Notes: generated by a model not told the origin, from the sequence alone. Positions 8,131-46,230 are shown, counted from the stretch's first letter. The stretch is 64,000 bases of DNA from Candidatus Wolfebacteria bacterium (GCA_002401345.1 NVSU01000001.1:68476-132475), one strand, 5' to 3'. Numbers and translations: made by a program.

Positions 8131-8140
8131 TCTATGATTT

Positions 8141-8695: not shown

Positions 8696-8760
8696 AGAAC
8701 AAAAATTTAAATTATATATTTCTAGAGATCATAATACATAAAAATTCGTACTTTGGCAAC

Positions 8761-8800: not shown

Positions 8801-8811
8801 TAAGAATGCGA

Positions 8812-9222: not shown

Positions 9223-9603
9223 TTACATGTTTAATGCTTCTTTGACCTTTTTAACTACATCCTTTATTTTCCAATCACTTTTGACCAAGTAATACATTGG
9301 TTCTCCTTCTACCATTCCCATGATAAGTTTTTCATCTGTTGCACTTAAATTTGTCAAAATAATGATCGGAACTGTTTTACCCCACTCATCTTCACGAAGT
9401 TTTTTCATTGTTGTCATCCCGTCCATCTTTGGCATCACAAGATCAAGTAGGATGATATCGGGATGTTCCCTTAGTGAAACCTCTAGACCTTCATCTCCAT
9501 TTTTTGCTTTCAGGACTTCAAAATTCTCTGCACTGAATTTATCACCCAATACTTCCAGCATATCTAATTCATCTTCAATAATTAATATTTTTTTCATATT
9601 CAT
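9223..9603 (-). CDS. Single-domain response regulator (CheY-like receiver)
   Basis: 126 aa. IIEDE, phospho-acceptor in DIILLDLVMPKMDG, conserved T/K positions. Confidence 0.8.
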   Translation of the reverse strand: MNMKKILIIEDELDMLEVLGDKFSAENFEVLKAKNGDEGLEVSLREHPDIILLDLVMPKMDGMTTMKKLREDEWGKTVPIIILTNLSATDEKLIMGMVEGEPMYYLVKSDWKIKDVVKKVKEALNM

Positions 9604-9709
9604 TTTTTAATCTCTAATGTTTATTTATAAATTTTTCGACCTCTTATAATTACGACCGCAGAGTACATGGATGTGTGCGTACACATTATCCGCGCGATGT
9701 GATCATGCT

Positions 9710-15641: not shown

Positions 15642-15842
15642 ATATAATACAAACACAAAAAAAGCGCCGCACTGTTAATCACAATTACGACGCTTTTCAT
15701 ATTTTGTTAGTTTAATTGTATCAATTCACAGTTTAATTGAAAGATAGAAATGTGGATAACTTTCAACGTACTTTCTACACGACCCAATTAAACTACTGTG
15801 ATAAAATTAGTAGGCGTCATAATTGTGAGTTACTTCAATATT

Positions 15843-17375
15843 ATGACGTTTTTACATGTATTTAAAAAAAATTGCATTATTTCAATTCTTGTACTCTTGC
15901 TGTTGAGCTGGGGGATATTCTTAAGATTCCACAATCTGGGACAGTCATCATATTGGATGGATGAAGGATATTCAGTAAATGCGGCACTCTCCACAGCAGA
16001 GAAAGGATATCCATTTCTTGATTCAGGGATGACCTACGATACACATCTGCCGAGCACGTACGCAATTGCCGGATCAGTAAAATTGTTTGGTGAATCAAAC
16101 ACTTCGACACGCCTTCCATCGGTTATTTTTAATATACTATTCCTTGCTACTATATTTTTATTCACCAAAAAGTTTTTTGGGATAAAAACTGCACTTCTTA
16201 CAACTTTATTTTTGACGTTTTCATATTGGGAAATCGGATGGGCTCGACAAGCAAGAAATTATGCGCTCTTTCAGCTCTCATTCTGGCTTTCTCTTTATTT
16301 CTTCTGGCAACTGCTCTATAACACACGAGTAATAAAGTATGTGGTACCGTGGATTATATTTTCATTTCTCACTTTCTTTACACATCGTCTAGGCCTTTTT
16401 CTTTTGCCTATCTATCTTATTTCTTTTGTAGTAGTGCAATGGGATCATCTCAAGAAAAACTGGTTACATTATTTATTCGGTGCACGCTCAATATATGTAT
16501 ATATATTTACCCTTTTAATATTCATTATCTTTGGAGGAGGAGTATGGAATACAATAAAAGAATCTCTCTCACTAAAAATATTTTATTTACCACAGTATCT
16601 AGCATTTATAAAAAATAATTTCCTGCTTGTGATAATTCTCGCGCTTTCTTCTCTCGCATTATATTTCAAAAACAAATTAATTCGTCAAAAAATATCCCTT
16701 CTTCTGATTGTCTATATAGTTCCATTAGTGATTATTTCTTTTTTTATCCTTCTCTCGGGTCATCGTTACCTTTTCCCTGTTTTACCTGCGCTTTATATTT
16801 TAAGTGCACTTACATTTGTATATATATGGGAAAAATACAGAAATATTTTTATACGAATCGGAATCTCTGTGGCAGTAGTGCTTATGATACTTTTTTCAAA
16901 GGAGTTCCAGTTTATGCCACGCACATTCTTTCCCCTTGAATCAAATCGTACACCTATCGAATTGGGACAAAAAAACAAGGCGTCGCAAAATTATTATATT
17001 TATACTCCCCAGCCTGACTGGAATAACGCATATTCCTTTATCAAAGAACGCAACACACAGGACGATATTATAATCTCAGTTCAACCAGTCTTTAATAAAT
17101 TATACTTAAATGATGCAGGGTACTGGATAGCATATTCACTCAGTGACAAATCTACACCTCCAATGTCCGATTTCTATGTAGGAGCTCACACTATACAAAA
17201 TCTTACAGAGCTCACACAACTCACTCGCAATGAACATGGGTTTATTATTTTAGACTTTCTTTCAATGGACAACAGAATTGAGCAACACATTCTTGAATAT
17301 ATACATGAACATATGGAACTTGTATACAAAAAGGAAACAAACTACTGGTCGCGAATATGGATATATCGTTTTTGA
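15843..17375 (+). CDS. GT39/GT83-type polytopic membrane glycosyltransferase (PMT / ArnT-like, polyprenol-phosphate-sugar dependent)
   Basis: 525-aa ORF. YWMDEGYSVNAALSTAEKGYPFL...SYWEIGWARQARNYALFQL. More than 10 TM segments. The annotated start was moved to the ATG at 15843 because 15798-15842 overlaps the repeat element. Confidence 0.65.
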   Translation: MTFLHVFKKNCIISILVLLLLSWGIFLRFHNLGQSSYWMDEGYSVNAALSTAEKGYPFLDSGMTYDTHLPSTYAIAGSVKLFGESNTSTRLPSVIFNILFLATIFLFTKKFFGIKTALLTTLFLTFSYWEIGWARQARNYALFQLSFWLSLYFFWQLLYNTRVIKYVVPWIIFSFLTFFTHRLGLFLLPIYLISFVVVQWDHLKKNWLHYLFGARSIYVYIFTLLIFIIFGGGVWNTIKESLSLKIFYLPQYLAFIKNNFLLVIILALSSLALYFKNKLIRQKISLLLIVYIVPLVIISFFILLSGHRYLFPVLPALYILSALTFVYIWEKYRNIFIRIGISVAVVLMILFSKEFQFMPRTFFPLESNRTPIELGQKNKASQNYYIYTPQPDWNNAYSFIKERNTQDDIIISVQPVFNKLYLNDAGYWIAYSLSDKSTPPMSDFYVGAHTIQNLTELTQLTRNEHGFIILDFLSMDNRIEQHILEYIHEHMELVYKKETNYWSRIWIYRF

Positions 17376-17418
17376 TTCTTTATCTTGCAGATGATACAAT
17401 TTACAGTGCGTCGTAATA

Positions 17419-19368
17419 GTGATTTATTTTACTATTATGGTGCTTTTTTTGTGCCCATTTTACCTCATGGTGAACAAAAATATTCCTACAACTAAAAAAT
17501 CTTCAAAGAGACTATTAAGAAAAAGAAAACGCGTATTCCTTCATCGCTTTGGCGCTATTTTAATTATAGTAATCCCGATCATAGTGATTTCTTTTTTAGG
17601 AATACAGCTTTACCAAGCGTCTGCATACAATGCATTCTATACAACAGACCTTAATCCCGAGACATTCAAAAATGATAGTTTGCCTCTTTATATTAACGAA
17701 GATCTAAATAAAGAAATATTTGGACAAGGTGGGGTGATAGATAATGAATATTATTTCGAAATAATCGGTTCACCTTTCGAATTCATCTGGCAACCAGAAG
17801 AATTTCCAATAAAAAAGGATGTACAAGTCAGCGCTACATTCAAAGGAAATACTTTTTTGGAACTTGGTATTCCCTGTATAGCATGCAACCAAGAAAACTA
17901 CAGATGGGAACCTTTTTATGATCCTCTTAAAAATCCTCCGGCAATAACTACATTATTTGAAAAGAATACAGAAAATAACTATACGAAGAATAGTATTACA
18001 GAAATAAAAAACGAGCTCGTCGGATCGCAGGTTTTTTATGTATATCTAGAAGACAAGATTGATCTTTCTATTACCAAGATTTCATTAAATCCACACAGTG
18101 CTGAAAAAAATATCCTGGTCACTCTAACTAATCTTGAAGGAACCATAGTATGGGAGGAGGAGCTCCCGCATGTTACGCATGAAGAAACATCATTCCGCTT
18201 TGAGGCAGCGCTTGAAGAAAAAGGTATCTATAAACTCTCTATAGTAAATTCTTTAGATGATTTCATTATCACTAACCTTTCTATTAATACACATGCCATT
18301 GCTTCAGCTGATACTATTCATTCAAAGATTACTATAGACACATCTATAGATGAATGGATCACTATCTCAAAACAAATAGAGGGGGAATTTAAAGACAAAA
18401 ACGCTATTAATTTTGTACTTAGAAATCAAATTTTAGAAGAAAAAAAGAAAAAAGAAGACATAATAAGAGAAAGGGGCTTTACGATAGCACAAGAGTTCAA
18501 AGATTTTTTGATTTGGAAAAAAGATAATGCACCAGTGCTTCATTTTGTAGTTCCAGACGAAGAGAGCACACTTCGCGAATTCCTTGCGCTCTCTATTCCT
18601 GAAAAAAGAGTGGTCGAGGAAAATAAAGATCTTGGAATTGTGCGGGACGCACCAGAGGGATTTGCGACAACACCGACAACCGTCAACACCGACTTGCGTG
18701 GTAATCACTCTTTTTATCTTTACCTCTCTGATTCATTTAGTTCCGACATATCAATAAAAGAACTCAATTGGTATGATGGCGCTGATGATATTACGATAAC
18801 GCTCAGTACAAAAAATGAAGGGAGGAAATTATGTCAAAGAACATTTTTTGACGACGGAAATGTCTCAACAGACAAACAAGAACATACAACAACTATTCCC
18901 TTTGAATGTAATAATCTTACTCCCGGAATATATCTTTTATCTTTCGAAGAGTCCTCATCAAAGAAAGATTATGTGATAAACAAACTCACAGTTAACACAA
19001 ATAAAATAATAGTTAAAAACGGTATTCTTAATTTACAACCACTACCACTCTACACTAATGTAACCACCGAAAAAAATATTAAATTCTACTACTGGCATGA
19101 GAACCTAGATCAAGAGATCACATTCACTTCAAAAGGAAAACAATTATCACTTTCATTAACAAAAGAAGATAAGGGTCGAGGAGTTTTTTATCCTTTGACA
19201 GCTGGATTATGGGAAATATATGCCTCTAAAGGTAATGCTGTTATTTCAAATGCTGATTTCGCTTTTTCACCTGAACATTGGTTTATCGTTGAACCGGATT
19301 ATATTGTTACAAAAAAAATAGATGACTCCACAATACTACTTAAAAATATAGCGATCACAGTACTATGA
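17419..19368 (+). CDS. Large membrane-anchored extracytoplasmic protein, hypothetical
   Basis: 649 aa with an N-terminal TM. 4-nt overlap with the next gene. The start may be the internal M at MVNKN. Confidence 0.45.
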   Translation: MIYFTIMVLFLCPFYLMVNKNIPTTKKSSKRLLRKRKRVFLHRFGAILIIVIPIIVISFLGIQLYQASAYNAFYTTDLNPETFKNDSLPLYINEDLNKEIFGQGGVIDNEYYFEIIGSPFEFIWQPEEFPIKKDVQVSATFKGNTFLELGIPCIACNQENYRWEPFYDPLKNPPAITTLFEKNTENNYTKNSITEIKNELVGSQVFYVYLEDKIDLSITKISLNPHSAEKNILVTLTNLEGTIVWEEELPHVTHEETSFRFEAALEEKGIYKLSIVNSLDDFIITNLSINTHAIASADTIHSKITIDTSIDEWITISKQIEGEFKDKNAINFVLRNQILEEKKKKEDIIRERGFTIAQEFKDFLIWKKDNAPVLHFVVPDEESTLREFLALSIPEKRVVEENKDLGIVRDAPEGFATTPTTVNTDLRGNHSFYLYLSDSFSSDISIKELNWYDGADDITITLSTKNEGRKLCQRTFFDDGNVSTDKQEHTTTIPFECNNLTPGIYLLSFEESSSKKDYVINKLTVNTNKIIVKNGILNLQPLPLYTNVTTEKNIKFYYWHENLDQEITFTSKGKQLSLSLTKEDKGRGVFYPLTAGLWEIYASKGNAVISNADFAFSPEHWFIVEPDYIVTKKIDDSTILLKNIAITVL

Positions 19369-21158
19369 TCCGTGAAATGCTTAAAAATAAATGGGGTCCT
19401 ACCCTTTTGGTGTATGTGGCAATCTATCTGATTGTCATTTTTTTAGATGTACGACTTGGTGGCTTTTTGAGCTTTTATTTTAATCCTGTAATTTTTCATT
19501 ATCTTTCACTTATCATTATTATTTCTCTTTTTTATGGTGTCACAAATGAATGGAAAAAAAATACACAGATAGCAAAAAGCCTAAAACATTTCGATGACGT
19601 GGATCAAAAAGAAAACAATCGACTATACGTTATACTATTGCTTATTATTTTTGCCCTGGGAACATTCCTAAGACTCTATCACCTAGGGGAACTTTCTCCT
19701 GCAGGAGATGAATATAGACACCTTCTTGCAATGAAACGTTTTTTAACTGATGGTATATTTGGCTACACTACCTCATCTATCACAACTCTTATTATCACGG
19801 GCGTAAAAAAAATTACCACAAGTGATTCACTATTTTTGCTTCGATTACCGTTTGCGCTTCTCGGATCACTTTCAATTTTACTTTTTTATGCGATCGGGAA
19901 AAAAATAGCAACTAGGCAAGTTGGTTTAATTGCAGCGTATCTTTTCGCATTTCTACCGCTTGCAGTAGGTCTTTCGAACTACATACGTGGGTATGAAATA
20001 GCGCTTTTTGTCTCCCTTGTTGCGATATATTTTCTATTTTCGCCTTATATAAAAAATCTATACTTCAAAATAGTTCTCTTTATTCTTAGTTTAAAGCTTA
20101 TTGCGTACTTAAATTCTGATCAACGTTTTGATGCAATGGTTATGTTCTTTGCTATCTTTGCACTCTTCTATGGAGGTCTCATGTTTATAGACGAGATTAT
20201 AAAAAATAAGCGATGGAATAACATCATCAAAATTACCGCCCCTTTTATTGCATTTGTTGCGGGAATTTCTATCATGCCACTTTTCTTTGAGTTTAGTTTT
20301 TCGAGGACAGTAGAATGGGGGTATCTTTTTTTAATTAATCATAGCTATTCCGATGTAACATGGTATTTTGAGATTATTCCGTTTATTGTGATAATATTTT
20401 TTATTATTAGTGCATTCTTTGCAAAAATTAAAAAGAAAAATGTCATCTATGCACTCTCTTTTACATTGATTTTTATCATCGCCATATTCATGTTTTATTT
20501 TGACGGACCAAAGCGATTTCAAGTACGCTATCTGTATCCCCTCTTTCCGTATTTCATCCTCCTTCTCTCCATTGGTATTTCCTCCGCATATTATATATTC
20601 AAAAGAATATTTAAGGTGGGAATAATAGAATACAGTATTGTCTCTGTCATTGTATTTATTACTATCTTTAGCCCTGTGAAAGCTTTTTATTTCACATTCA
20701 CGGAAACGAACGGAGAACACAGCAAACTAAATCAACTAACCTATTTACCAGACAAAGAACTTATAACATTTGTGAACGCTCACAATATCGATGTATCTAA
20801 AATCATAACCACGACACCGTGGGTTTTTGACTTTTATTATGACCAACCATTTTTAATGACAGGAGAACTTAATCAGTATGTGCACTTTCCCAAAGAATGG
20901 AATTATGAATTTGTGAACAGAACAAAGCTCTATAGCATTAGTGGTTTTCGATCTGAAGAAGAAATCAAAACAATAAATGAAATTATTGATACACGTGATA
21001 TAGAATATCTTATTTTCCATAGTCTGCCACAGCACTCAGATTACAGATATAGCTACGAGTACCCCCTTGAAACTATACGTGACACAGAGTTGGTAACTAT
21101 TATTGGAGAAAATAGTTCATATGGATATTACATATATAAAATCAATAAAGAATCATGA
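19365..21158 (+). CDS. Second GT39/ArnT-like polytopic membrane glycosyltransferase
   Basis: 597 aa. LRLYHLGELSPAGDEYRHLL with many TM helices. An extracytoplasmic C-terminal domain. Confidence 0.6.
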   Translation: MIREMLKNKWGPTLLVYVAIYLIVIFLDVRLGGFLSFYFNPVIFHYLSLIIIISLFYGVTNEWKKNTQIAKSLKHFDDVDQKENNRLYVILLLIIFALGTFLRLYHLGELSPAGDEYRHLLAMKRFLTDGIFGYTTSSITTLIITGVKKITTSDSLFLLRLPFALLGSLSILLFYAIGKKIATRQVGLIAAYLFAFLPLAVGLSNYIRGYEIALFVSLVAIYFLFSPYIKNLYFKIVLFILSLKLIAYLNSDQRFDAMVMFFAIFALFYGGLMFIDEIIKNKRWNNIIKITAPFIAFVAGISIMPLFFEFSFSRTVEWGYLFLINHSYSDVTWYFEIIPFIVIIFFIISAFFAKIKKKNVIYALSFTLIFIIAIFMFYFDGPKRFQVRYLYPLFPYFILLLSIGISSAYYIFKRIFKVGIIEYSIVSVIVFITIFSPVKAFYFTFTETNGEHSKLNQLTYLPDKELITFVNAHNIDVSKIITTTPWVFDFYYDQPFLMTGELNQYVHFPKEWNYEFVNRTKLYSISGFRSEEEIKTINEIIDTRDIEYLIFHSLPQHSDYRYSYEYPLETIRDTELVTIIGENSSYGYYIYKINKES

Positions 21159-22396
21159 ACTTCCTTCGAATAAAAATAAAAGAATATCTGGATAAAAATA
21201 AGTTCATGTCTTCTCTCTTTATTCATGGTATATGGATGACAATACGACAAGTGATTGTGCTAGGAAGTGGTCTTGCGCTCTCTATTGCTTTTGCACGACT
21301 TGCTACACAGGAAGTATTCGGACAGTATCAGCTCATCCTTTCAATACTCTCAGTTGTGTCAATTGTTTCCATACCTGGACTCAATATGTCTATATTAGGA
21401 TCAACGGCCCGTGGATTCGAAGGCAGCTTCACGCGCGCGGTGCGCACAAGCTTTCTCTGGAGTCTCATCGGTATTCCTGTGTTACTTGCTGTTGGTGGAT
21501 ACTATTATATATATGAAAATCCTACAGTAGGACTTGCATTTATGGCACTCTCTTTATTCTTTCCATTTCTCTACGCACCGAATACATGGGATTCATTCCT
21601 TCAGGGGAAAGAGCGTTTCGATGTTGCATCACGCTACTCATCAATTCAGGCACTCATAAATGCAGCCACAATAATAGCAATATTATTTTTATTTAAAGAT
21701 AATCTACTTCTTATTGTAGTGGCATATGCACTGACGCTCGCTTTCTTTAATATAGTCTGGTACAAAAAAAGTCTTCGGTATGTAGAAAATAAAAATGAAG
21801 ACAAGGAAACAATTCCCTATGGATGGTTTGTCACAAAAATACAAATTCTCTCACTGATTGCAGGTAATCTCGACAAGGTACTTATAGGAATATTTATAGG
21901 GCCTGTACAATTGGCGGTGTATGCAATTGGAATAAATTTTTCAAAAAAAATTCTTTATTTCGTAAAAAGCCTTCTCGGTGTTGCAACACCAACCATATCC
22001 AAGAAAAATACTGTGAGCATGAAACTCTACAGTAAGATTTTTATTCTTGCGACTATTTTTGCAGGAGCACTCTTTCTATTTATGCCGGTATTAATCCCAT
22101 TTCTTTTCTCGAACAAGTATGTTGATTCTATTTTGCTCTCACAACTCGTTGTAGCCTTTTTACCATTTTACATACTAAACATACTCTATAAAAACCATTT
22201 TCTCCTCTATTTAAAAAATAAACGTATCCTTTTCTATGAATCCATCATATTTCCTATCACAAAAATTCTTCTCATGATTCCACTCATCTATTTCTTCGGA
22301 ATTATCGGTCTTGCGTTCCTCATTGGATTCCAAAATATTCTTAATATGGCGGTGCTTTATCTTCTACACAAAAAAAACAAACAAGTGGTGAAATAA
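21155..22396 (+). CDS. Polysaccharide/oligosaccharide flippase (Wzx-like, MOP superfamily)
   Basis: 413 aa with about 12 TM helices. It sits in a glycan locus with a 4-nt overlap to the upstream gene. Confidence 0.5.
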   Translation: MNFLRIKIKEYLDKNKFMSSLFIHGIWMTIRQVIVLGSGLALSIAFARLATQEVFGQYQLILSILSVVSIVSIPGLNMSILGSTARGFEGSFTRAVRTSFLWSLIGIPVLLAVGGYYYIYENPTVGLAFMALSLFFPFLYAPNTWDSFLQGKERFDVASRYSSIQALINAATIIAILFLFKDNLLLIVVAYALTLAFFNIVWYKKSLRYVENKNEDKETIPYGWFVTKIQILSLIAGNLDKVLIGIFIGPVQLAVYAIGINFSKKILYFVKSLLGVATPTISKKNTVSMKLYSKIFILATIFAGALFLFMPVLIPFLFSNKYVDSILLSQLVVAFLPFYILNILYKNHFLLYLKNKRILFYESIIFPITKILLMIPLIYFFGIIGLAFLIGFQNILNMAVLYLLHKKNKQVVK

Positions 22397-23047: not shown

Positions 23048-23059
23048 AAATTTTATACA

Positions 23060-23091
23060 ACATTCTCACATTCTCAAGAATGTGAGAATGT
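23060..23091. promoter_or_regulatory. Operator-like perfect palindrome ACATTCTCACATTCT-caag-AGAATGTGAGAATGT, about 10 bp upstream of the methyltransferase start
   Basis: 14-bp perfect arms. The same motif recurs at 43348-43403 and, degenerate, at 30428-30465. Confidence 0.5.
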
Positions 23092-23092
23092 C

Positions 23093-23908
23093 TTAAGATT
23101 GTTGTTTATTAATAATATCCTTACATACAGAAATCCATTCACTCTTTTCTTTTCTTCCTTTTTTCCTCAGTAAGTAACCTCCCAAAAGAGGAATTTTGTA
23201 CAAATATTTTCTTTTTGTATGTATATACTTGTTTGCCCCAAGCGTTGACCCCCTACCAAAATGTGATGAGAAAATATGTTCATATCCTTTCAAATAATGC
23301 TCTGCGACACCAATACTATTTCTAAACGGACCATCTTTATATGTGCGCGTATTTCGAGCTCCTAATATAATCCCTTTAAATCCTGCTGCAAGATATTTTT
23401 CTCTCAATTCTGCGCCTGTATCCTCATGTAGCGATATATCACGTGGACGTAAATCAATATTTAAATCATTAAACGTCTTTGTTTCAAATAAAATGGCATA
23501 CATGAGTGGAAAATCTTTTGGCTTGTCTCCATCTGATTCTGTTCCCGCAACTTTTACCTTATCGTCGAATGTACTTATTAATATAGTGTCCCAGTCTTTT
23601 ATAAGCCATGTTGCATCTGCATCAAGTATTGAAAAATACAGAGTATCCACTTGTGTTGCTAAATAATTGAGCGCCGTACCATGCGCCATACTCCCGCGTA
23701 ACCCTGTGCTATTGCGTTCAAGTGACACATTCTCATACTCACTAATAATACGTTGCAATTTCTCATAATCTTTTGACTTAGAATCGTTATCCACAATAAA
23801 AACTTGATAAGGATTACGTGTAAGTTTCTTCAATCCGTACAAAGTATTTTCAATAAACTCAGCAGAATTAAAGTTCACTATTAAAATTGTTATGAGAGGA
23901 TTCTTCAT
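23093..23908 (-). CDS. Glycosyltransferase family 2
   Basis: ILIVNFNSAEFIENTL...VFIVDNDS (GT-A fold, DxD). Confidence 0.75.
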   Translation of the reverse strand: MKNPLITILIVNFNSAEFIENTLYGLKKLTRNPYQVFIVDNDSKSKDYEKLQRIISEYENVSLERNSTGLRGSMAHGTALNYLATQVDTLYFSILDADATWLIKDWDTILISTFDDKVKVAGTESDGDKPKDFPLMYAILFETKTFNDLNIDLRPRDISLHEDTGAELREKYLAAGFKGIILGARNTRTYKDGPFRNSIGVAEHYLKGYEHIFSSHFGRGSTLGANKYIHTKRKYLYKIPLLGGYLLRKKGRKEKSEWISVCKDIINKQQS

Positions 23909-25463: not shown

Positions 25464-26055
25464 TTATTAATAATCCTGAATAATAATCGGGATGTGTGCG
25501 TCTTTGTAAAAAAAGAACAAGAAACAAATACAAAGGATAGAGCACATATCGAGCTGGTACAAATCGTATGTGTTTTATTTTTCCTCGTACAATGTCGAGT
25601 ACAACTGAATATGCATTACCTATATGAAGGACATTTACATTTGAAAAACTACCAAAAAGCTCTCTGACATAACGTTTCGTAAATCTCATTCTGTCTCCAT
25701 GATCTTTATACACAAATGGAATTGAGGTGACGATACTGCCACCACTCTTAAGTACCCGATACATTTCAGAGAGTGCGCGGCGTGGTGATTTAATATATTC
25801 AAGAACCTCAATGCACATAATTGAATCGAAATACTCATTAGGAAATCGAAGATTATTTATATCACCTTTTATAATGTCATTTTCACTATCGGCAATACTA
25901 TCAATTGCAATTGGCTTGTTCTGTAATAAGTGATCGTATCGTCTGTTTTTTGACCCAACATCAAGTACAGTACCCGAAAGTTTTGGCAACCACTCATTCA
26001 AATGGTTCTCAAGTTCTATTCTATGTGCTGATTTTTTTATATATTTTGTAATCAT
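25450..26055 (-). CDS. Class I SAM-dependent methyltransferase
   Basis: VLDVGSKNRRY, VLKSGGSIVTSIPF. Confidence 0.7.
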   Translation of the reverse strand: MITKYIKKSAHRIELENHLNEWLPKLSGTVLDVGSKNRRYDHLLQNKPIAIDSIADSENDIIKGDINNLRFPNEYFDSIMCIEVLEYIKSPRRALSEMYRVLKSGGSIVTSIPFVYKDHGDRMRFTKRYVRELFGSFSNVNVLHIGNAYSVVLDIVRGKIKHIRFVPARYVLYPLYLFLVLFLQRRTHPDYYSGLLIIAHK

Positions 26056-27131
26056 GGTGTATGCTCCTTAAATCCTAATTCTTTATCGACATCTAACATC
26101 TGAGCGATAATTGAAATTCCCCACAAAAACAGACATGTTCCGTGGATATCTGGCTCATCAAACCCACGTGTGATACGCGCTTCATAATAGAAACGATTCG
26201 CCTTGTGATGACTAAATGAAAATCCACCGCGCTTTGGAAAATAGTATTGTCGATATATGTCCAAACGTCGTCGGGCAGCCTCTTGTATTTCTCGATTCCT
26301 ATATGACCCTCTGAGCATTTTATTTGCGTAATTAAGCACATAAATAATATTAAAGTTGTCACATGCCTGTCGGTTATTGTCCGCTTCTAAACATAAATCA
26401 ATTAATTTATCAGGATAGTGAAAATACATCCTTTCTGCTGCTTTTAGTCCTGTGAGTATTTTCATTGCCGCATTTACTTTCTGCACATGCGTGGGAGCTC
26501 CCTTATACCACGATCCATCTTCTCTATTTTGGATCTTATGTACCCATGCGACCGCAAAGTCAATTAACGCCTCTTTATTTTTAAGGTCGCTATGTTTTAA
26601 AAAGAATAAAAGATGAGAAAAATGACTTCCTGCTCCCCATGGTTTTGTCCAATCTAATATTTTAAGATATTCATCTATTTCTTCTTCTGTGTGGGGAATA
26701 TTTTTATATGAAATGGTCGGCGTAACTTCAAGTATGTTGAGTGCGGAAAGTGCTTGGCGTGTTTCCGCACGAATTGTCTGTGTATGAAAAAAATTGTTGA
26801 AATCACGATGCTTTACTACGCCTGCTTTTTCTCGAAGCCATGCTTTTTTCTTTATAAGCGGATCATATATACTGCCATCATCAATCTGAAAGCTTTTTAT
26901 AAAATCTGCCATATTTTTTTTCTCTTCTTCAGAAAGTGTGTCTAATATTCCAAGCATATAATAATTTTTAACTGCAAACACAGTATTGCCAAGTCCCCAG
27001 TATTTTTCCTCTCCATACAAATCACCAGTCAGAGAATATCTGAAAAATCCGGAGACAGAAGTTCCCTTCATTGTTTCTAAAAAACGAGGGATATCTTTTT
27101 TTAATGTAAACAACCATTCAGTATTGTTCAT
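26052..27131 (-). CDS. Hypothetical protein with prenyltransferase/squalene-oxidase-type repeats (alpha/alpha-toroid-like)
   Basis: Repeated QxDDGS/EDGSWY motifs. The true start is MNNTEWLF at 27131; the ORF extension to 27449 overlaps the upstream SDR gene. Confidence 0.3.
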   Translation of the reverse strand: MNNTEWLFTLKKDIPRFLETMKGTSVSGFFRYSLTGDLYGEEKYWGLGNTVFAVKNYYMLGILDTLSEEEKKNMADFIKSFQIDDGSIYDPLIKKKAWLREKAGVVKHRDFNNFFHTQTIRAETRQALSALNILEVTPTISYKNIPHTEEEIDEYLKILDWTKPWGAGSHFSHLLFFLKHSDLKNKEALIDFAVAWVHKIQNREDGSWYKGAPTHVQKVNAAMKILTGLKAAERMYFHYPDKLIDLCLEADNNRQACDNFNIIYVLNYANKMLRGSYRNREIQEAARRRLDIYRQYYFPKRGGFSFSHHKANRFYYEARITRGFDEPDIHGTCLFLWGISIIAQMLDVDKELGFKEHTP

Positions 27132-27132
27132 A

Positions 27133-27870
27133 TTATTCGCTCGAAAGACGTGCAAGTACGCCACCATCAACAATAAATTCTTGTCCTGTAATAAATGCAG
27201 ATTTTTTATTATCTGCCAAAAAATAAATGAGTTCTGCAATATCATTTGGAACACCGATTCTACCAACTGGATGTTTTGCAGCAAGATTTTCATTAGTAAT
27301 CTTATTTCTTTTAAGTCCATCCTTAAGCATATCTGTATCAATAGCGCCTGGAAGAATTGTATTGACCCGAATTCCATCGTTAGCAAATTCAAGTGCCATT
27401 GCGCGAGTGAGAGTAGAAAGCGCTCCCTTTGAGGCAGCATATGCAGCAATATTAAGAGAAGTAGCAGTAGAGTGAACTGAGCTTATGTTCACTATAGAAG
27501 CCTTATTTTTCTTTAGTGCTGGGTGGAAAAATTTGGCAATCAAAAAGGCAGCGCGAGTATTAACATCAAACGTTTTATTCCATTCTTCCACAGTGGTATC
27601 GAGAATATTTTTTGAAATCTGAATTGCCGCATTATTAACAACACACCCAAGACGTATCTCTTCTTCTTGTATTTTTATACTTAGTCTTTCGATTTCATCT
27701 GGATCAGATAGATCAATATTATAAAATTCATCGATAAAATTTTTTTTGCCGTTTGATTTTTTATAATCAATCCCGATCACATACCATCCTCGTTCCTTAA
27801 ACAATTCGGCAATGGCACTTCCTATACCCCCCAATACACCCGTAATAAGTATCGTTTTTTTATGTATCAT
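27133..27870 (-). CDS. Short-chain dehydrogenase/reductase (SDR family oxidoreductase)
   Basis: TGVLGGIGSAIA Rossmann motif. YxxxK in YAASKGAL. Confidence 0.8.
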   Translation of the reverse strand: MIHKKTILITGVLGGIGSAIAELFKERGWYVIGIDYKKSNGKKNFIDEFYNIDLSDPDEIERLSIKIQEEEIRLGCVVNNAAIQISKNILDTTVEEWNKTFDVNTRAAFLIAKFFHPALKKNKASIVNISSVHSTATSLNIAAYAASKGALSTLTRAMALEFANDGIRVNTILPGAIDTDMLKDGLKRNKITNENLAAKHPVGRIGVPNDIAELIYFLADNKKSAFITGQEFIVDGGVLARLSSE

Positions 27871-28820
27871 ATTCCTAATCCTTTTAATAAATGAGTAATT
27901 GAATTTTCATGAACCAAGTTCCAATAATGCGGACTACTATTGGTATTATGTGGTGACAGAAGAATATTTTTCATCGATCGAAGCGGGCTTTTTTTGGGAA
28001 GTGGTTCATATTCAAATACATCCAATGCAGCACCTCGTATCTTTTTTTTCTTTAGGGCATCTATAAGATCATTTTCTTTTACAAGTGGCCCACGGGCTGT
28101 ATTAATGAGCACTGCATCATTTTTCATCTGCAAAAATTCTTTTTTTGAAATAATATAGCGACTTGTTTCATTTAAATCAGAGTGAAGACTTATGTAGTCG
28201 GATTGTGTAAGGAGTTTCTCTATATGTGTTGGAATAATATTATATTTTTTTATAACTTCCTTAGAAATTGGAAGCACGTCATATACCAAAACATCCATTC
28301 CAAATGCTTGTGCACGTTGTGCAACTGCACGGCCCACATTTCCGAGACCTATAATGCCAAGAGTTTTTTCCCTCAGAGATGCACCCTGTACTTTCTTCCA
28401 TGTTCCTTTTTTCATCTCACTATCGAGCACCGGTATATTACGCGCAAATGAAAGTATGTATCCGAGCACACTATCTGCAACAGGTTCTGAAAATGCATTT
28501 GCCGTATTGCATACGCGAATTCCAATTTTCTCAGCATATTGCTTATCAATGGAATCAACTCCTGTGCCCCATTTCACAATTACTTTAAGTTTTTCTGCCT
28601 TTTCAAGTACTCGCTGTGTTATTTCGTCATCTCCACAAATAATGCCATCATACAGTCCAATGATATCTATGAGCTCTTTTTCACTAAGACGCTCATGAAC
28701 CTTTGGAAGATCAATGGAAATATTCCTCTCTTTAAAAACTGGTCGCAACTTATTAATTTCTGTCTGCATATATGGAGCAGATATAAGTACACGATATTTT
28801 TTTACTTTCTTTGTTTTCAT
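27867..28820 (-). CDS. D-isomer-specific 2-hydroxyacid dehydrogenase (phosphoglycerate dehydrogenase-like)
   Basis: GIIGLGNVGRAVAQRA NAD motif and a catalytic-domain layout. Confidence 0.8.
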   Translation of the reverse strand: MKTKKVKKYRVLISAPYMQTEINKLRPVFKERNISIDLPKVHERLSEKELIDIIGLYDGIICGDDEITQRVLEKAEKLKVIVKWGTGVDSIDKQYAEKIGIRVCNTANAFSEPVADSVLGYILSFARNIPVLDSEMKKGTWKKVQGASLREKTLGIIGLGNVGRAVAQRAQAFGMDVLVYDVLPISKEVIKKYNIIPTHIEKLLTQSDYISLHSDLNETSRYIISKKEFLQMKNDAVLINTARGPLVKENDLIDALKKKKIRGAALDVFEYEPLPKKSPLRSMKNILLSPHNTNSSPHYWNLVHENSITHLLKGLGI

Positions 28821-30415
28821 GTTTTTATAAATGGTCGATAATGATAAAAATATTTCTTCACTTCATTTGTAAGTGAATTCTTGAACGTATATCCTTTATA
28901 TGTGCCCCAATACTGCATATATCGAAATGAAGGTATTTCCCAGATGTGCTTCAACTTTCTTTCAAATACTAGAGCTCGACAATAATCCAATGCTGTATTG
29001 AATGTAAATAACAATAAAAAATCAAGGAAAGAAAAATTCGTTTCAGGGAAAATTCTTTTTAATGCAATTGCTTCACGTTTATATCGAATAAACACCCTCT
29101 CCCAGCTCTCTTCATGAATATGAAAAATACCAGCACTGATTGTGTAATAAATAGTATGTCCGCGCTTTTGCATTTTTTCTGCCCATGCAAGATCTTCTAG
29201 GCCTGTAAGCTCCTCATCGTACGGAAGTTCTTCCCAAAGCGATCGCCTGATAGCAGTATTCGCATTATTACAAAATGGAATATCTGTTTGCATGCAAGAT
29301 GATTCGGGAAACATCTTTTTTAAAAGCTGATGTTCTGAGAATTTTGTGACATGGTTGCCACGCTGTTTTCCATATACTGCAGCAATACGCGCATCTTCAA
29401 AAGGCTCGATTATCTCATCGAGCCATGAATCATTCATGGGGTAACAATGTGCCGAGAGAAGCACCACATACTCACCTCCTGCTACTTCAATTCCCTTGTT
29501 AAGCGAATAGCCAAATGAAAAATCTTCTGGCTTTATATGCACAATCTTTACTGGGTACTCTTGAACAATGCCAAGTGTCTTATCAGTAGATCCTGAATCA
29601 ACAATAATAACTTCAAAGTGCCTATTGGTGTTTTGTGAAAAGACACACTCCAGCACTCCACCTATATGGTGTCCTTCGTTAAAAGTACGAATTATAATCG
29701 ACACAATAGGATATTGTGAGGTGCATAAAGGATTCTTAGGTGAAAAAGAAATATGTTTTAATGATTCCGCAATAATAAACTCATCCTCCGTATCAATGTC
29801 GATAGATTCCCGCTTGTCCACTTCAAATAAGAATGGGGTTATACCGATTCTTTTTTTGTCATTATTGTAAAACGACTCTTTGCTGAATATAAAAATATTT
29901 GAATTTTCTTCATACAAAGGAGATAGGTCTTGTGTGCGTATTAGTTCTTGGGGATTATGATTAAGTGCACCACCATGTTCATCATATATTCGCGACTGTA
30001 GTCTTGTCACAGAGAAAAGTGAGTCATGTATATCACTTGAGCTAAAAAACTTCTCTATTGCCTCATCTATTGTTTTTGTTGTTAATAATGGATTAGTGGA
30101 ATGTGTCTGTAAAAAATATTCATCATCTGATTTGGACACATCGTATGCAATGATAGTATTCATTGAAACAAAGTCCCCACAAAGTTCATTGGGGCGATTA
30201 ATAATTTTCACCTTTTTAAATAATTTCGGCGCGTCAGTACTAATAACATCACTATCTGTATTAATACGTATTTCTTTTATGTAGCTACTTTTTGAAAGTG
30301 TCTCAAGAATATGATGATAGAGTGGTCTACCCGAAAAATTCCGAATATTTTTATTCGGCACGCGCTCGCTATGCGCTTTCATTGGGAGCAGGGCTGTAAT
30401 TGATATTTTTTTCAT
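28817..30415 (-). CDS. Bifunctional protein: N-terminal acylneuraminate/CMP-sugar cytidylyltransferase-like domain fused to a C-terminal GT2 glycosyltransferase domain
   Basis: ITALLPMKAHSERVPNKNIRNFSGRPL (CMP-NeuAc/Kdo synthetase family). Later VSIIIRTFNEGHHI...VIIVDSGSTDKT (GT2). The true start is MKKISI at 30415; the ORF extension runs through the repeat element. Confidence 0.6.
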   Translation of the reverse strand: MKKISITALLPMKAHSERVPNKNIRNFSGRPLYHHILETLSKSSYIKEIRINTDSDVISTDAPKLFKKVKIINRPNELCGDFVSMNTIIAYDVSKSDDEYFLQTHSTNPLLTTKTIDEAIEKFFSSSDIHDSLFSVTRLQSRIYDEHGGALNHNPQELIRTQDLSPLYEENSNIFIFSKESFYNNDKKRIGITPFLFEVDKRESIDIDTEDEFIIAESLKHISFSPKNPLCTSQYPIVSIIIRTFNEGHHIGGVLECVFSQNTNRHFEVIIVDSGSTDKTLGIVQEYPVKIVHIKPEDFSFGYSLNKGIEVAGGEYVVLLSAHCYPMNDSWLDEIIEPFEDARIAAVYGKQRGNHVTKFSEHQLLKKMFPESSCMQTDIPFCNNANTAIRRSLWEELPYDEELTGLEDLAWAEKMQKRGHTIYYTISAGIFHIHEESWERVFIRYKREAIALKRIFPETNFSFLDFLLLFTFNTALDYCRALVFERKLKHIWEIPSFRYMQYWGTYKGYTFKNSLTNEVKKYFYHYRPFIKT

Positions 30416-30427
30416 AAAAATTCCACA

Positions 30428-30465
30428 TTTCACTATTCTTAAAAACGTTAGAATAGTGTGAATTT
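30428..30465. promoter_or_regulatory. Degenerate copy of the TTCT..AGAA operator-like palindrome (ATTTCACTATTCT-taaaaacgt-TAGAATAGTGTGAAT)
   Basis: Inverted repeat related to the 23060/43348 palindrome, in the promoter region of the cytidylyltransferase-GT2 gene. Confidence 0.35.
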
Positions 30466-30480
30466 CTGCTCTTTTGGCAA

Positions 30481-30521
30481 CAAAAAAAGCCGCAATTGCA
30501 AAAAAATCACAATTACGACGC
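30481..30521 (-). ncRNA. Conserved leader hairpin+U-tract element (family copy d)
   Basis: On the minus strand: GUCGUAAUUG-ugauuuuuuug-CAAUUGCGGC-UUUUUUU, with two G-U pairs. The same pairs would be C-A mismatches on the + strand. Confidence 0.4.
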
Positions 30522-30691
30522 ATGTACATTCTATCAATTCAAACTCATAAATGCAAAATTTAGTCTAATAACTCATAAAAAATGGTATTTTTAGAAAATC
30601 CTCGCATAGTAAAAAATATTGATCCTGTTATGTAAAATAACCAGAGGATGGGCTCCTGCTTTGTGCACAAATTCACTTTATGTATCATTAC

Positions 30692-31762
30692 TTAATTCTC
30701 ATAGTTCTTTACGTTCAGAAAATCCCTAAGCAGGGACCATTTCTTTTGGATTTTCCAGCCTAAAACTAATGCTTTGATTTTATAGTAATTTATTTGCGCG
30801 TTGAAAGTAATTTGCTTTGTATTATATTCATTTTTTTGAATATCATCATATATTGTTCGAGCAAATTCATAATACTTGTTCGAGACTTTTTTTATTTTAA
30901 ACTGAGGAAGCGCATTTTGATACTCCTTATAACTATTAGCAATTTTCTCTATTTTATCTAAGACATCGTTGGTTCCTTCAAAAAATTCTCCACCACTTCC
31001 AATCAATTCCGGGTTACTGCTTGAATTGGGCACTACAGCTGGCAACCCACATGAGAGTGCCTCTATAAGCGAATTAGAACATGCCTCAATTCGACTTCCA
31101 AAAATAAATATATCGCTTTCTTTCAGTAACCCCACGAGATCTTCCGAGGACACCGGGGGAATATGTTTAATGTTCTTGAGATGAATAGGAGAATTTCCTA
31201 TAAATGTCATTTCATATTTTGAAAAATCTAGATACTCATCTAAATACTGAAAAATATCGAAGCCCTTGCCCCAGTTATCAGACCAGCTCGAGGCCACGAG
31301 TTTTATTTTTCCGTAGTGTGAAAATGCTCTTTTATTTTTCCTGTTAAATATCTTCTTACTAGATGCATTCAAAAGTACCGTGTTATATGCTGATGTGATA
31401 TTCCACTGGTTCCTGCATTGCTCCATGCACCACTTAGATTGAAAAATTATTCCGTCTACAAAGGACTCATTGAACAGCTTTATAATTCTATCAATTACTG
31501 TGTCATCCTTTCGATACATTGCAATTGGTCCTGTGAGTCGATGAAGAATGATCTTCTCTGGATATTTCTTTTTAAGGTCACGTACCTGGTCAAAAAAAAA
31601 TTCTGATCCAAATGGATAGCTATTAAACAACACTACATCTGCATCTTCCGAATTTTCAGCGTATCTATCTCGCTTTTTGAATTCATCCTTAAGTGCCTTT
31701 AGAAACTGATTAGCACCTCCCCATGAACCCTCCTTAAATTTGTACATAATATGTAGTTTCAT
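30692..31762 (-). CDS. Glycosyltransferase family 1 (GT4-like)
   Basis: C-terminal EAxxxGLPxV-like SLIEALSCGLPAVV...GGEFF. Confidence 0.7.
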   Translation of the reverse strand: MKLHIMYKFKEGSWGGANQFLKALKDEFKKRDRYAENSEDADVVLFNSYPFGSEFFFDQVRDLKKKYPEKIILHRLTGPIAMYRKDDTVIDRIIKLFNESFVDGIIFQSKWCMEQCRNQWNITSAYNTVLLNASSKKIFNRKNKRAFSHYGKIKLVASSWSDNWGKGFDIFQYLDEYLDFSKYEMTFIGNSPIHLKNIKHIPPVSSEDLVGLLKESDIFIFGSRIEACSNSLIEALSCGLPAVVPNSSSNPELIGSGGEFFEGTNDVLDKIEKIANSYKEYQNALPQFKIKKVSNKYYEFARTIYDDIQKNEYNTKQITFNAQINYYKIKALVLGWKIQKKWSLLRDFLNVKNYEN

Positions 31763-32640
31763 CGTTTTCTCACCATTGCTGGTGTTATTTTTGATGTTGC
31801 ATATTTCAACGCACTATCAAAATCAATGTATGGATAGATTTGAAGTATAGTTTCCTTCTTTTCCAATCTAAAACAGCCAATATTTTTTTCGTCAGCAATT
31901 TTCTTAGCAATAGATGCACATATGAGTGTCATTTCTTTTTCCGGAAACTCCAACGTGGTTCCATTAATAGTCTGATACATTCGCTTCTTATCATAAAAAT
32001 GTCCAGTAGATTGCATGTGATCAACACCGGAAAAAAATAGCGTCCTAATTCCTAGAAACCCACACAAAGGTAGAAATGAATTCTCAACGTTACCTCCACC
32101 AAGCACACGAATCGGCTCTATCCCATATGACATATATGATGAATCGATAGTATCTACATTCATAGGAGCCTCAATTTCCCTATACAGTACACATGTTGCC
32201 TCCGGGTGTTTTTTCAAGAATTTTTTTACTATAGCAGAACTAAAGTGCACCGATGAATCCGAATCATTAGCAGGAACAAGTATAAATGTTTCAGAAAAAT
32301 CGAGTGGTGTCTGTACTTCTTCTTTTAGTACAACCTTTAATGTCGGACCATAGTGAACGAACCACAAATTTGGCATAAATCCATATTTTCTAAAAAAATG
32401 TACGGGGCCATTGTGAACACTCAAAAGATTATATTCTTTGAGTCTCGAAACATCTTTGAGGTTTGCAACACTTCCACCATTACCAAACATAAATACTTTT
32501 GAGTTTTTAAAATATGGAATGAGTTCTGAAATAAAAAACAATTTACCCTCTTTACGCATTTTACTCAATCCCCTTTGACTAAAGAGGTTCAGTTTTTCAA
32601 GTATTTTATTTAGCAAATACATAATTGTACACTGAATCAC
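31759..32640 (-). CDS. Hypothetical protein, possibly a Maf/DUF115 (motility-accessory-factor-like) glycosyltransferase
   Basis: FMFGNGGSVANL resembles the DUF115 GNGPS motif. Weak call. Confidence 0.3.
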   Translation of the reverse strand: MIQCTIMYLLNKILEKLNLFSQRGLSKMRKEGKLFFISELIPYFKNSKVFMFGNGGSVANLKDVSRLKEYNLLSVHNGPVHFFRKYGFMPNLWFVHYGPTLKVVLKEEVQTPLDFSETFILVPANDSDSSVHFSSAIVKKFLKKHPEATCVLYREIEAPMNVDTIDSSYMSYGIEPIRVLGGGNVENSFLPLCGFLGIRTLFFSGVDHMQSTGHFYDKKRMYQTINGTTLEFPEKEMTLICASIAKKIADEKNIGCFRLEKKETILQIYPYIDFDSALKYATSKITPAMVRKR

Positions 32641-35147: not shown

Positions 35148-35266
35148 TAAAAAGCGCCGTAATTGTGACCCCTAAAATTCCTAGAGGTGACGATCTTCAC
35201 ACACTTACTCCACCAACAAATGGGAAGAAATAGTCAAGAAAATCTATCACAATTACGACGCTTTAT
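35148..35266 (-). repeat. MITE-like copy of the leader-element family: 15-bp arms GCGCCGTAATTGTGA / TCACAATTACGACGC flanking about 80 bp
   Basis: The arms are inverted repeats of each other with one difference. That difference is a G-U pair on the minus-strand RNA but a C-A mismatch on the +. Confidence 0.45.
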
Positions 35267-41177: not shown

Positions 41178-41217
41178 AAAAAAAGTCGCAATTGCAAAAT
41201 AATCACAATTACGACGC
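41178..41217 (-). ncRNA. Conserved leader hairpin+U-tract element (family copy f)
   Basis: Minus strand: GUCGUAAUUG-ugauuauuuug-CAAUUGCGAC-UUUUUUU. 10-bp stem with one G-U pair. Confidence 0.4.
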
Positions 41218-43347: not shown

Positions 43348-43403
43348 CACAACATTCTCATATTCTCAAGAATGTGAGAATGTGAGAATGTTGTGAGAAT
43401 GTT
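43348..43403. promoter_or_regulatory. Operator-like palindrome plus tandem TGAGAATGT half-site repeats, immediately upstream of the GT4 gene start
   Basis: ACATTCTCATATTCT-caag-AATGTGAGAATGTGAGAATGTTGTGAGAATGTT. The same core is at 23060-23091. Confidence 0.5.
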
Positions 43404-46193: not shown

Positions 46194-46230
46194 TAAAAAA
46201 CGCCGCCTGTGGTGATCACAATTACGACGC
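46194..46230 (-). ncRNA. Conserved leader hairpin+U-tract element (family copy h), 20 nt upstream of the GT2 start
   Basis: Minus strand: GCGUCGUAAUUGUGAUCACCACAGGCGGCGUUUUUU. Hairpin with G-U pairs plus a U-run. Confidence 0.35.

Follow-up and report, generated by a model that had tools for sequence, protein, structure and literature searches.

Sialic-acid-like sugars (Neu, Leg, Pse, Kdo, Kdn) shape the surface presentation of bacteria and archaea, and to our knowledge every known route to them begins with a NeuB- or KdsA-type synthase. The cytidylyltransferase (CTase) of such a pathway can carry a second enzyme: NeuA of Escherichia coli K1 combines a CTase with an esterase, and vertebrate CMAS combines one with a HAD-like domain. 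We know of no characterised bifunctional NeuA or CMAS with a glycosyltransferase domain. Activation and transfer have been united on one polypeptide in an engineered CMP-Neu5Ac synthetase/sialyltransferase fusion protein, which serves sialoside synthesis. Here, we describe a natural gene that joins a CTase domain of Pfam family PF02348 to a glycosyltransferase domain of the GT2 type. It lies on the minus strand of a 64,000-nucleotide stretch deposited under Candidatus Wolfebacteria bacterium (GCA_002401345.1 NVSU01000001.1:68476-132475; hereafter, the window). Like E. coli K1 NeuA and CMAS, its product has a PF02348 domain joined to what would be a second enzyme of a sugar-acid pathway, but the partner is a GT2-type GT-A domain rather than an esterase or HAD-like domain. 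The engineered protein shares with the first-pass reading of the gene the concept of activation and transfer on one polypeptide; it is man-made, however, and its transferase is a sialyltransferase, whereas the fusion in the window is natural, of GT2 type, and known from its sequence.

The gene encodes a genuine bifunctional two-domain protein and arose by the end-to-end joining of two neighbouring genes. These neighbours belong to a module that is widespread in Patescibacteria, Chloroflexota, Desulfobacterota, marine bacteria and Bacteroidota, and this uncharacterised module is of more note than the fusion that exposes it. Tentatively, and at a little under even confidence, we favour a reading in which the module makes a CMP-activated acidic sugar and the fusion holds an entry enzyme of that pathway beside the CTase, as in a metabolon. 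The sugar is probably sialic-acid-like. In the literature that we searched, we found no characterised natural CTase-GT2 fusion, no description of the GT2 subfamily defined below, and no characterisation of the aldolase-type cassette that carries a CTase of the same subfamily.

Architecture of the fusion protein

The first-pass annotation had read positions 28817-30415 as a CTase fused to a GT2 glycosyltransferase, and both the reading frame and the fusion stood up, with matches well outside what chance would give. An uninterrupted minus-strand open reading frame (ORF) covers 28817..30529 (570 residues counted from the first ATG); the start at 30415, which we prefer over 30529, is Met39 of that ORF and gives a product of 532 residues. 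By sequence comparison, the shorter form is the likelier product of the gene, because the 38 extra residues of the deposited form fall on a repeated intergenic leader element and because free-standing homologues start at the Met39 position; residue numbers below refer to this form. In NCBI, the protein appears as PCI21353.1, from a metagenome-assembled genome (MAG) labelled "Candidatus Wolfebacteria bacterium", and as the identical MBL4886938.1, from a MAG labelled "Flavobacteriaceae bacterium". Both records are 570 residues long and carry the sole name "glycosyltransferase"; CTase-GT2 sequences are, in other words, already public under generic names. The identical protein also occurs on four contigs from independent assemblies, and a 73%-identical homologue (P0002) is fused in the same CTase-to-GT2 order with a diverged linker. 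Scanning a species-genome contig collection with the fusion protein returned just four distant matches (25-29% identity) and no close relative.

Both Pfam domains score well above their cut-offs. PF02348 (CTP_transf_3) spans residues 8-188 (E = 2.8e-24; 86.6 bits vs. 22.6), and PF00535 (Glycos_transf_2) spans residues 239-396 (E = 1.3e-24; 87.5 bits vs. 23.3). An AlphaFold2 model built from 45 aligned sequences (mean predicted local distance difference test score, pLDDT, 88; predicted template modelling score, pTM, 0.63) contains two compact folds and a disordered linker, with pLDDT mostly above 87 over residues 1-224. Given the linker and the pTM, the model shows no fixed interdomain channel or geometry. 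In Foldseek comparisons with the PDB, the N-terminal domain matched CMP-Neu5Ac, CMP-Kdn and CMP-Pse synthetases (6ifd, 9t4z, 1qwj, 1eyr and 9ftc; target-normalised template modelling score, TM, 0.73-0.85), and the C-terminal domain matched GT2 enzymes of the GT-A fold, namely K4CP (chondroitin polymerase), PcManGT, TarP and WrtF (E = 1e-13 to 1e-18).

The N-terminal domain shares its Pfam family and fold with synthetases of the CMP-sialic-acid type (NeuA 1eyr of Neisseria meningitidis and 6ifd of Vibrio cholerae, CMP-Kdn synthetase 9t4z, and PseF 9ftc of Aeromonas caviae), at just 20-26% identity to the solved enzymes. It also shares their P-loop basic and serine residues, their RxQD(L) motif and, where the domain ends at its C-terminus, their D-x-D metal site; KdsB is a more distant relative than NeuA, CMP-Kdn synthetase or PseF. 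We placed its residues by phmmer alignment to the solved CMP-sialic-acid synthetases and counted conservation over 218 relatives. In the P-loop, K13, S16 and K22-N23 are the aligned counterparts of R12, S15 and K21-N22 in the N. meningitidis CMP-Neu5Ac synthetase; position 13 is K or R in 217 of the 218, and S16, R18, K22 and N23 are each present in all of them. RTQDL (160-164) lines up with RxQ(D/Q)L, a conserved motif. In the N. meningitidis enzyme, D209 and D211 bind metal, Q104 forms a second metal site, and mutagenesis identified D209, D211, Q104 and K142 as critical (PMC2901514). The residues aligned with the two aspartates, D206 and D208, occur in 213 and 215 relatives, respectively. 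The phmmer alignment places His105 (214/218) at the Gln104 position, and Gln103, two residues upstream, is Q in 174 relatives and M in 40. N152-H153 and E169-E170-N171 are invariant and specific to the subfamily.

Because the catalytic residues align and His105 is a family-wide difference, the N-terminal domain looks like an active CMP-ulosonate synthetase with a specificity of its own. Its most likely reaction would join CTP to a 2-ulosonic (alpha-keto) sugar acid to give a CMP-sugar. No NCBIfam equivalog for PseF, NeuA, LegF or KdsB reaches its cut-off on this domain: the nearest named family is PseF (TIGR03584; 74.1 bits vs. 205.7), and KdsB (TIGR00466) scores 22 bits vs. 155.2. Judged by these scores, the sugar would be something other than Kdo, Neu5Ac or Pse. 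The MobA-like family PF12804 gives 27.1 bits vs. 86.6 for PF02348, with the catalytic residues kept, and the original assignment to the acylneuraminate/Kdo CTase family holds on score, fold, P-loop and the two metal-binding aspartates.

The C-terminal domain consists of a catalytic core (about residues 238-436) and a four-helix region (438-524). Calling it a GT2 catalytic domain was right as to the fold, the nucleotide-binding aspartates and the E-D region, but the DxD motif of such enzymes is absent and S-A-H stands in its place. We therefore refer to this S-A-H subfamily of GT2 as GT2*, and counted its conserved residues over 224 relatives. The aspartates of VDSGSTD are nearly universal (D273, 218; D278, 217). 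S-A-H aligns with DCD/DSD of K4CP, DAD of 6p61 and DSD of TarS; S321 and H323 are each found in 220 relatives. E407 (222) and D408 (221) would be the candidate acidic catalytic base after the acceptor loop. Near the end of the core lies an HxHxE cluster (non-gap rows: H432, all 218; H434, 216; E436, 209), a possible replacement metal or leaving-group site, and R243, R444 and R447 are also invariant.

GT2* shares the GT-A fold, the VDSGSTD aspartates and the E-D region with canonical GT2 enzymes (SpsA, TarS/TarP, K4CP, DPMS/PcManGT), but it has S-[AG]-H where they have DxD and Arg243 where they have the proline of the PxYN loop. The invariant HxHxE, the R444/R447 pair and a CNNA motif also set it apart. 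Compared with canonical GT2 enzymes it is unusually conserved across phyla, retaining 45-60% identity and about 40 invariant residues. In three loci compared, it was at least as conserved as every other module enzyme and the most conserved in two. Finally, GT2* is tied genomically to the CTase and dehydrogenases, and not to one particular glycan as canonical GT2 enzymes are.

With the whole protein as query, both domains were present in 51 of the 120 best 90%-identity clusters. Among the two-domain clusters aligned, only the window protein and P0002 run from CTase to GT2, and a domain census of 387 fetched proteins counted 51 in the GT2-to-CTase order and two distinct proteins in the CTase-to-GT2 order. 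Searching a 50%-identity library gave three two-domain representatives only among the best 150 matches. The architecture had been called uncommon on first pass; this is true of the CTase-to-GT2 order (2 of 53 two-domain relatives) but not overall, as the reverse order is common among the relatives (51/53). The closest relatives of either half are free-standing: GT2 proteins of 305-327 residues (54-60% identity) and CTases of 220-239 residues (about 59-62% identity). On two contigs of Patescibacteria type (L005 and L006), otherwise syntenic with the window between 23 and 35 kb, CTase and GT2* are split, adjacent, in the order of the fusion gene and 4-5 nucleotides apart. Linker residues 225-233 correspond to the stop codon, 5-nucleotide gap and start codon of these split genes. 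The window domains are about 59-60% identical to the split genes of L005, vs. 47-51% to the reverse-order fusions. Because they are closer to the split genes, the sequences indicate that the two fusion orders are independent events and that the fusion arose at least twice.

Both halves are found fused to other partners as well. GT2* is joined to an MDR-type dehydrogenase (GT2*::MDR, 20 clusters), to a cyclase (GT2*::cyclase, 5) and to a 2-hydroxyacid dehydrogenase (1), and GT2*::MDR occupies more 50%-identity clusters than the GT2*-CTase fusion does. The CTase is joined to a short-chain dehydrogenase (CTase::SDR, 4) and a 2-hydroxyacid dehydrogenase (3), and also occurs as HAD::CTase, HMGL-aldolase::CTase, CTase::HpcH-aldolase and GT29-like::CTase. 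The last of these, P0290 (470 residues), is a natural protein with an N-terminal domain resembling the GT29 sialyltransferase family and a CTase of the window's subfamily. On its sequence, it is a clearer candidate for activation plus transfer than the window gene.

The gene module around GT2*

The module comprises GT2*, the CTase, a D-2-hydroxyacid dehydrogenase and an alcohol dehydrogenase of the SDR or MDR type, sometimes with a metal hydrolase, and an MptE/Maf-like protein usually comes after it. At homologue loci, the D-2-hydroxyacid dehydrogenases are about 300-320 residues long and the classical SDRs about 245-260, and a metal hydrolase of the PF04199 "cyclase" family is often among the partners. 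The contexts come from Desulfomonilaceae, other Thermodesulfobacteriota, Patescibacteria, marine TARA contigs and others; at Desulfomonile-type loci, genes for a Wzm/Wzt ABC transporter come after the module.

A GT2* profile served to retrieve 80 metagenome loci, whose ORFs were then scored against module queries; 35 of the loci have at least 5 kb downstream of GT2*. Near GT2* in this set were an SDR (30 loci), a CTase (28) and a 2-hydroxyacid dehydrogenase (27), with all three in 26, as well as an MptE-like protein (20), NeuB (11) and a cyclase (10); an aldolase or HAD gene was near GT2* in none of the 35. The CTase lay immediately downstream of GT2* in 17 loci, and the commonest order was GT2*-(cyclase)-CTase-dehydrogenase-SDR-MptE-like. 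The trio of CTase and two dehydrogenases was also found beside GT2* in all eleven distinct homologue loci examined (L001, L002, L004-L007 and L015-L019). At L017 the alcohol dehydrogenase is MDR-type and the CTase is KdsB-like. Non-orthologous replacement affects two members: the SDR gives way to an MDR zinc dehydrogenase fused to GT2* (the 20 clusters above, and L017), and the cyclase gives way to a hydrolase of the metallo-beta-lactamase fold (L018, L019).

The window holds all four module functions, as the fusion gene followed by the dehydrogenase and then the SDR, with 4-bp overlaps (Table 1). The dehydrogenase is closest to type III phosphoglycerate dehydrogenase in the PDB. NCBI names this protein (PCI21352.1) "dihydrofolate reductase"; Pfam, NCBIfam and the PDB all place it in the phosphoglycerate/glyoxylate dehydrogenase family. 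For the SDR, the best PDB match is glucose 1-dehydrogenase 3vtz, by a small margin over FabG, which hints weakly at an aldose 1-dehydrogenase. Among solved enzymes, threonine dehydrogenase and generic alcohol dehydrogenases come nearest to the MDR domain that replaces it elsewhere; Pfam lists Glu_dehyd_C for it, and we set aside a specific assignment as glucose 1-dehydrogenase on account of those closest solved enzymes. The gene after the SDR, for a 369-residue protein, is conserved in the window's lineage only, where it has the same position in L005, and is perhaps an additional module member peculiar to that lineage. The ORF called mechanically for it (to 27449) reaches into the SDR gene and is probably longer than the real gene. 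No gene for an aldolase, a HAD protein or a cyclase turned up in the window when we looked for one.

Ulosonic-acid transferases of the Maf/MptE-like (DUF115) and WaaZ/KpsC types accompany the module in most loci and are more conventional candidates for the CMP-sugar transferase. They are not part of the fused protein, however, and the window has only a doubtful relative, the 293-residue protein at 31759-32640. This protein has no Pfam match even at E = 5, and in BLASTP it shares with MptE/Maf-like proteins the two short motifs GNGxS and G(V/C)D and nothing more. We dropped its reading as a clear MptE-like transferase on these grounds; it is possibly a divergent ulosonic-acid transferase. At a further metagenome locus (L059), positions 7449-10963 hold an island of NeuB, a KpsC/KpsS-like Capsule_synth protein and GT2*, between formate-tetrahydrofolate ligase and ferritin genes; no CTase or dehydrogenase lies nearby.

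The CTase subfamily also occurs in a second cassette, which is without GT2*. Free-standing CTases of Campylobacter coli (GCA_001230805.1; cassette at L008 10001-15003, in the kps capsule locus) and Methanococcoides burtonii (CP000300.1; L010 10001-14601) share about 62% identity with the CTase domain of the fusion. In both, the genes run CTase, HpcH/HpaI aldolase, 2-hydroxyacid dehydrogenase, extended SDR, cyclase, (DUF386) and HAD phosphatase, and they are 55-70% identical between the two organisms. The subfamily is thus found in two cassette types, one with aldolase and phosphatase and the other with GT2* and a classical SDR, and we saw no mixture of them. In C. coli, the cassette is preceded by two large proteins, each with an MptE-like domain; the second adds a canonical GT2 domain with DSD. 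The MptE-like domain of C. coli is 33-36% identical to those beside GT2* modules. The aldolase-type cassette has the appearance of an aldolase-based pathway, so far undescribed, to a CMP-ulosonic acid. M. burtonii additionally carries a classical NeuB/epimerase/CTase set, 10 kb upstream.

Possible roles of the GT2* domain

We lean, weakly and with rather less confidence than would make it an even choice, towards GT2* as a soluble enzyme at the entry of the pathway, which would take the sugar skeleton from a nucleoside diphosphate sugar (NDP-sugar). This rests on the conservation of GT2*, its fusions to enzymes other than the CTase, the MptE-like partners, the cassettes that lack GT2*, and the L059 island. 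PseG, NeuC/LegG and the epimerase domain of GNE are NDP-sugar-hydrolysing entry enzymes of nonulosonic-acid pathways. The role that we propose resembles theirs in the release of a free sugar, and they too are often fused or adjacent to other pathway enzymes; their folds, however, are GT-B or epimerase_2, whereas GT2* has the GT-A fold and its hydrolase role would be read from its context.

In such a pathway, GT2* would release or hand over a sugar from the NDP-sugar, much as PseG, NeuC or GNE does. The alcohol dehydrogenase, an optional lactonase-like hydrolase and the 2-hydroxyacid dehydrogenase would convert it to a 2-keto sugar acid, the CTase domain would activate that acid, and an MptE-like protein would transfer it to the glycan. 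The three dehydrogenase families of the module are those of E. coli IdnD, IdnO and GhrB/TkrA, which interconvert aldonates and keto-aldonates. The fusion would then serve as a metabolon device that holds two enzymes of one soluble pathway together, and not necessarily as a channel from donor to transferase.

Several observations weigh against the entry-enzyme model. No characterised enzyme of the module turned up in the literature searched, and we know of no precedent for an NDP-sugar hydrolase of the GT-A fold in ulosonic-acid pathways. Loss of DxD is not expected in an enzyme that binds the diphosphate of an NDP-sugar. The nearest solved relatives of the SDR, the MDR and the 2-hydroxyacid dehydrogenase give no specific clue to the substrate, and two independent CTase-GT2* fusions fit donor channelling equally well. 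In addition, the window is without a hydrolase gene, and its MptE-like gene is doubtful.

A bolder form of the same idea, which we regard as doubtful, is that the module provides a route to a CMP-activated 2-ulosonic acid that is independent of NeuB and KdsA, and that GT2* represents a new functional class within the GT-A fold. One such route would lead from sugar to aldonolactone, aldonate, 2-keto-aldonate and CMP-sugar. Two functions would then be open to GT2*, that of a CMP-sugar transferase without DxD that arose within GT2, or that of an NDP-sugar hydrolase with the GT-A fold in the role of PseG or NeuC, and the aldolase and HAD cassettes of C. coli and M. burtonii would form a second entry into the same class of sugar. 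The E. coli K3 capsule contains a 4-deoxy-2-hexulosonic acid, which is a precedent for unusual 2-ulosonic acids in structure only. If the sugar were identified, it would add a new nucleotide sugar and would annotate many genes that now carry no more than the labels "glycosyltransferase", "short-chain dehydrogenase" or even "dihydrofolate reductase". Either a new kind of CMP-sugar transferase or a new kind of pathway hydrolase could also come to light, and the fusion offers a convenient single polypeptide for biochemical testing.

Next to the entry-enzyme model, the strongest alternative is direct coupling, as proposed on first pass: the N-terminal domain would make a labile CMP-ulosonate, and GT2* would be an inverting transferase that consumes it at once. 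We consider this rather unlikely, and the genomic evidence on it is mixed. CMP-Kdo-type donors are unstable, and the GT29 and GT42 sialyltransferases likewise have no DxD. In this mechanism, S-A-H and HxH might form a metal-independent or His-assisted site for a monophosphate donor, as in GT-A-like GT29 and GT42. The loss of DxD with retention of the E-D base region would suit it, since a CMP-linked donor offers no diphosphate for bridging to a metal. The gene arrangements fit as well: the two domains are fused in both orders by independent events, the split genes are adjacent, the CTase is directly downstream of GT2* in 17 of 35 loci, GT2* adjoins a PF02348 gene even when that gene is of the different, KdsB-like subfamily, and a natural GT29-like::CTase fusion exists in P0290. 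Other observations weigh against direct coupling. Fusions of GT2* to MDR occupy more 50%-identity clusters than its fusions to the CTase do, and it is fused to cyclase and 2-hydroxyacid dehydrogenase besides; a candidate transferase of the MptE-like kind accompanies it in 20 of 35 loci; the C. coli and M. burtonii cassettes use the same CTase subfamily without GT2*; and in the L059 island, GT2* stands with NeuB and a KpsC/S-like protein only, between housekeeping genes. Identities of 45-60% across phyla with some 40 invariant residues would be unusual for a transferase specific to one glycan acceptor. The modelled structure, with its pTM of 0.63 and disordered linker, likewise suggests no fixed interdomain channel.

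An ordinary glycan-building GT2 that became fused by chance is improbable. Such an enzyme would use a UDP- or GDP-sugar to add a neighbouring residue of the repeat unit, and the fusion would reflect operon adjacency and balanced expression. This would be in keeping with the large glycan cluster in the window, where GT2, GT4 and GT8 genes are numerous and methyltransferases and a Wzx flippase are also encoded, and with nearest solved relatives that all use UDP- or GDP-sugars. Against this, 220 of 224 relatives lack DxD, the CTase/2-hydroxyacid dehydrogenase/SDR trio accompanies GT2* across unrelated glycan loci and phyla whatever the other glycosyltransferases, and GT2* is fused to dehydrogenases and hydrolases. 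We also set aside a polyprenyl-phosphate transferase working with a GT-C partner, as the window has a PMT_2 enzyme but none was listed in the 7-10 kb flanks examined at the homologue loci.

Finally, it is very improbable that a frameshift or a faulty assembly has joined two genes, or that the N-terminal domain is a generic MobA-like nucleotidyltransferase: the narrow gap between the split genes of close relatives and the weak PF12804 match would permit it, but the ORF is unchanged in the independent assemblies and both MAG records, P0002 has the same fusion with a different linker, and the PF02348 score, fold and catalytic residues agree with CMP-sialic-acid synthetases.

Table 1. Positions of the fusion gene, its predicted domains and motifs, its neighbours and its leader elements, counted from the first nucleotide of the window.
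Feature	Position	Strand	Basis or remark
Fusion ORF	28817..30415	-	532 aa; stop codon overlaps the next gene's start codon; deposited version from 30529
Predicted CMP-ulosonate synthetase domain (PF02348), aa 1-224	29744..30415	-	Pfam 86.6 bits; TM 0.73-0.85
P-loop K13-A-H-S16-E-R18-V-P-N-K22-N23	30347..30379	-	phmmer alignment, 218 relatives
D206-I-D208 (in SIDIDTEDE)	29792..29800	-	aligns with metal-binding D209/D211, N. meningitidis enzyme
Disordered interdomain linker, aa 225-233	29717..29743	-	pLDDT below 50
GT2*-type GT-A domain, aa 234-532	28820..29716	-	Pfam 87.5 bits; Foldseek
S321-A322-H323 at DxD position	29447..29455	-	alignment to solved GT2 enzymes
L403-T-G-L-E407-D408	29192..29209	-	aligns with E-D catalytic-base region of TarS (KSAED)
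H432-I-H434-E-E436 His/Glu cluster, end of beta-strand	29108..29122	-	conservation count
D-2-hydroxyacid dehydrogenase, 317 aa	27867..28820	-	4-bp overlap with fusion ORF; module partner
Classical SDR, 245 aa	27133..27870	-	4-bp overlap; module partner
369-aa protein	26052..27161	-	weak prenyltransferase alpha/alpha-toroid similarity (Pfam); 57% identical to L005 gene
293-aa protein	31759..32640	-	GNGxS and G(V/C)D motifs; 49% identical to L005 gene
Leader region	30479..30557	-	promoter-like site 30528-30557; 13-bp hairpin 30489-30519; T7 tract, terminator-like
Second leader hairpin CACTATTCT-N10-AGAATAGTG	30437..30464	-	ATTCT...AGAAT hairpin just before fusion start; weaker than the palindromes at 23057-23102 and 43349-43394
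Copies of the leader 15-mer	15679-15693, 15814-15828, 17408-17422, 30507-30521, 35154-35168, 35247-35261, 41203-41217, 46216-46230		

Leader elements and the surrounding glycan locus

Two types of regulatory element had been proposed upstream of the gene, at 30428-30521. These were partly confirmed, as a terminator-like hairpin with a T-run (30479-30519) and a second hairpin (Table 1), and the leader RNA has a fold z-score of -3.3. The 5' arm of the 13-bp hairpin is a repeated motif, GCGTCGTAATTGTGA. With up to two mismatches, the 15-mer TCACAATTACGACGC has eight copies in the window vs. 0.06 expected, each just upstream of a glycan-locus gene and in the same orientation as that gene. Sense-direction alignment of the copies shows GCGTCGTAATTGTGA as their common part, and most continue with a variable pairing segment and a T-run; the 3' arm of the hairpin varies, with changes that are apparently compensating. 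This suggests an attenuator/terminator or an antitermination signal common to several polysaccharide operons. The fusion gene would then be expressed from its own leader, with a terminator-like hairpin that it has in common with other operons of the locus. An Rfam search of the window brought tRNAs alone to the gathering threshold.

A near-perfect palindrome of 32-46 nucleotides (ACATTCTCAyATTCTCAAGAATGTGAGAATGT) has two copies (23057-23102 and 43349-43394), both intergenic and near the two ends of a block of glycan genes. This block (22436-46179) is a very large glycan locus, nearly all on one strand, with at least seven methyltransferases (two of FkbM type), four GT4 enzymes, three GT2 enzymes and one GT8-like enzyme, as well as an asparagine synthase-type amidotransferase and a DUF2334/deacetylase-like protein. 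Alongside it lie a convergent Wzx flippase gene (21155-22396) and a PMT_2 enzyme of the GT-C type (15798-17375). The gene content suggests that the product of the locus is a heavily methylated polysaccharide.

The proteins of the window are deposited as PCI21329-PCI21384, and the fusion with its neighbours is also present in the MAG labelled Flavobacteriaceae. The window encodes, in addition, a weak C-terminal sorting domain of the type IX secretion system (17419-19368), an annotated cytochrome b, PAS histidine kinases and oligopeptidase B. An origin of the contig in Bacteroidota seems more likely than one in Patescibacteria.

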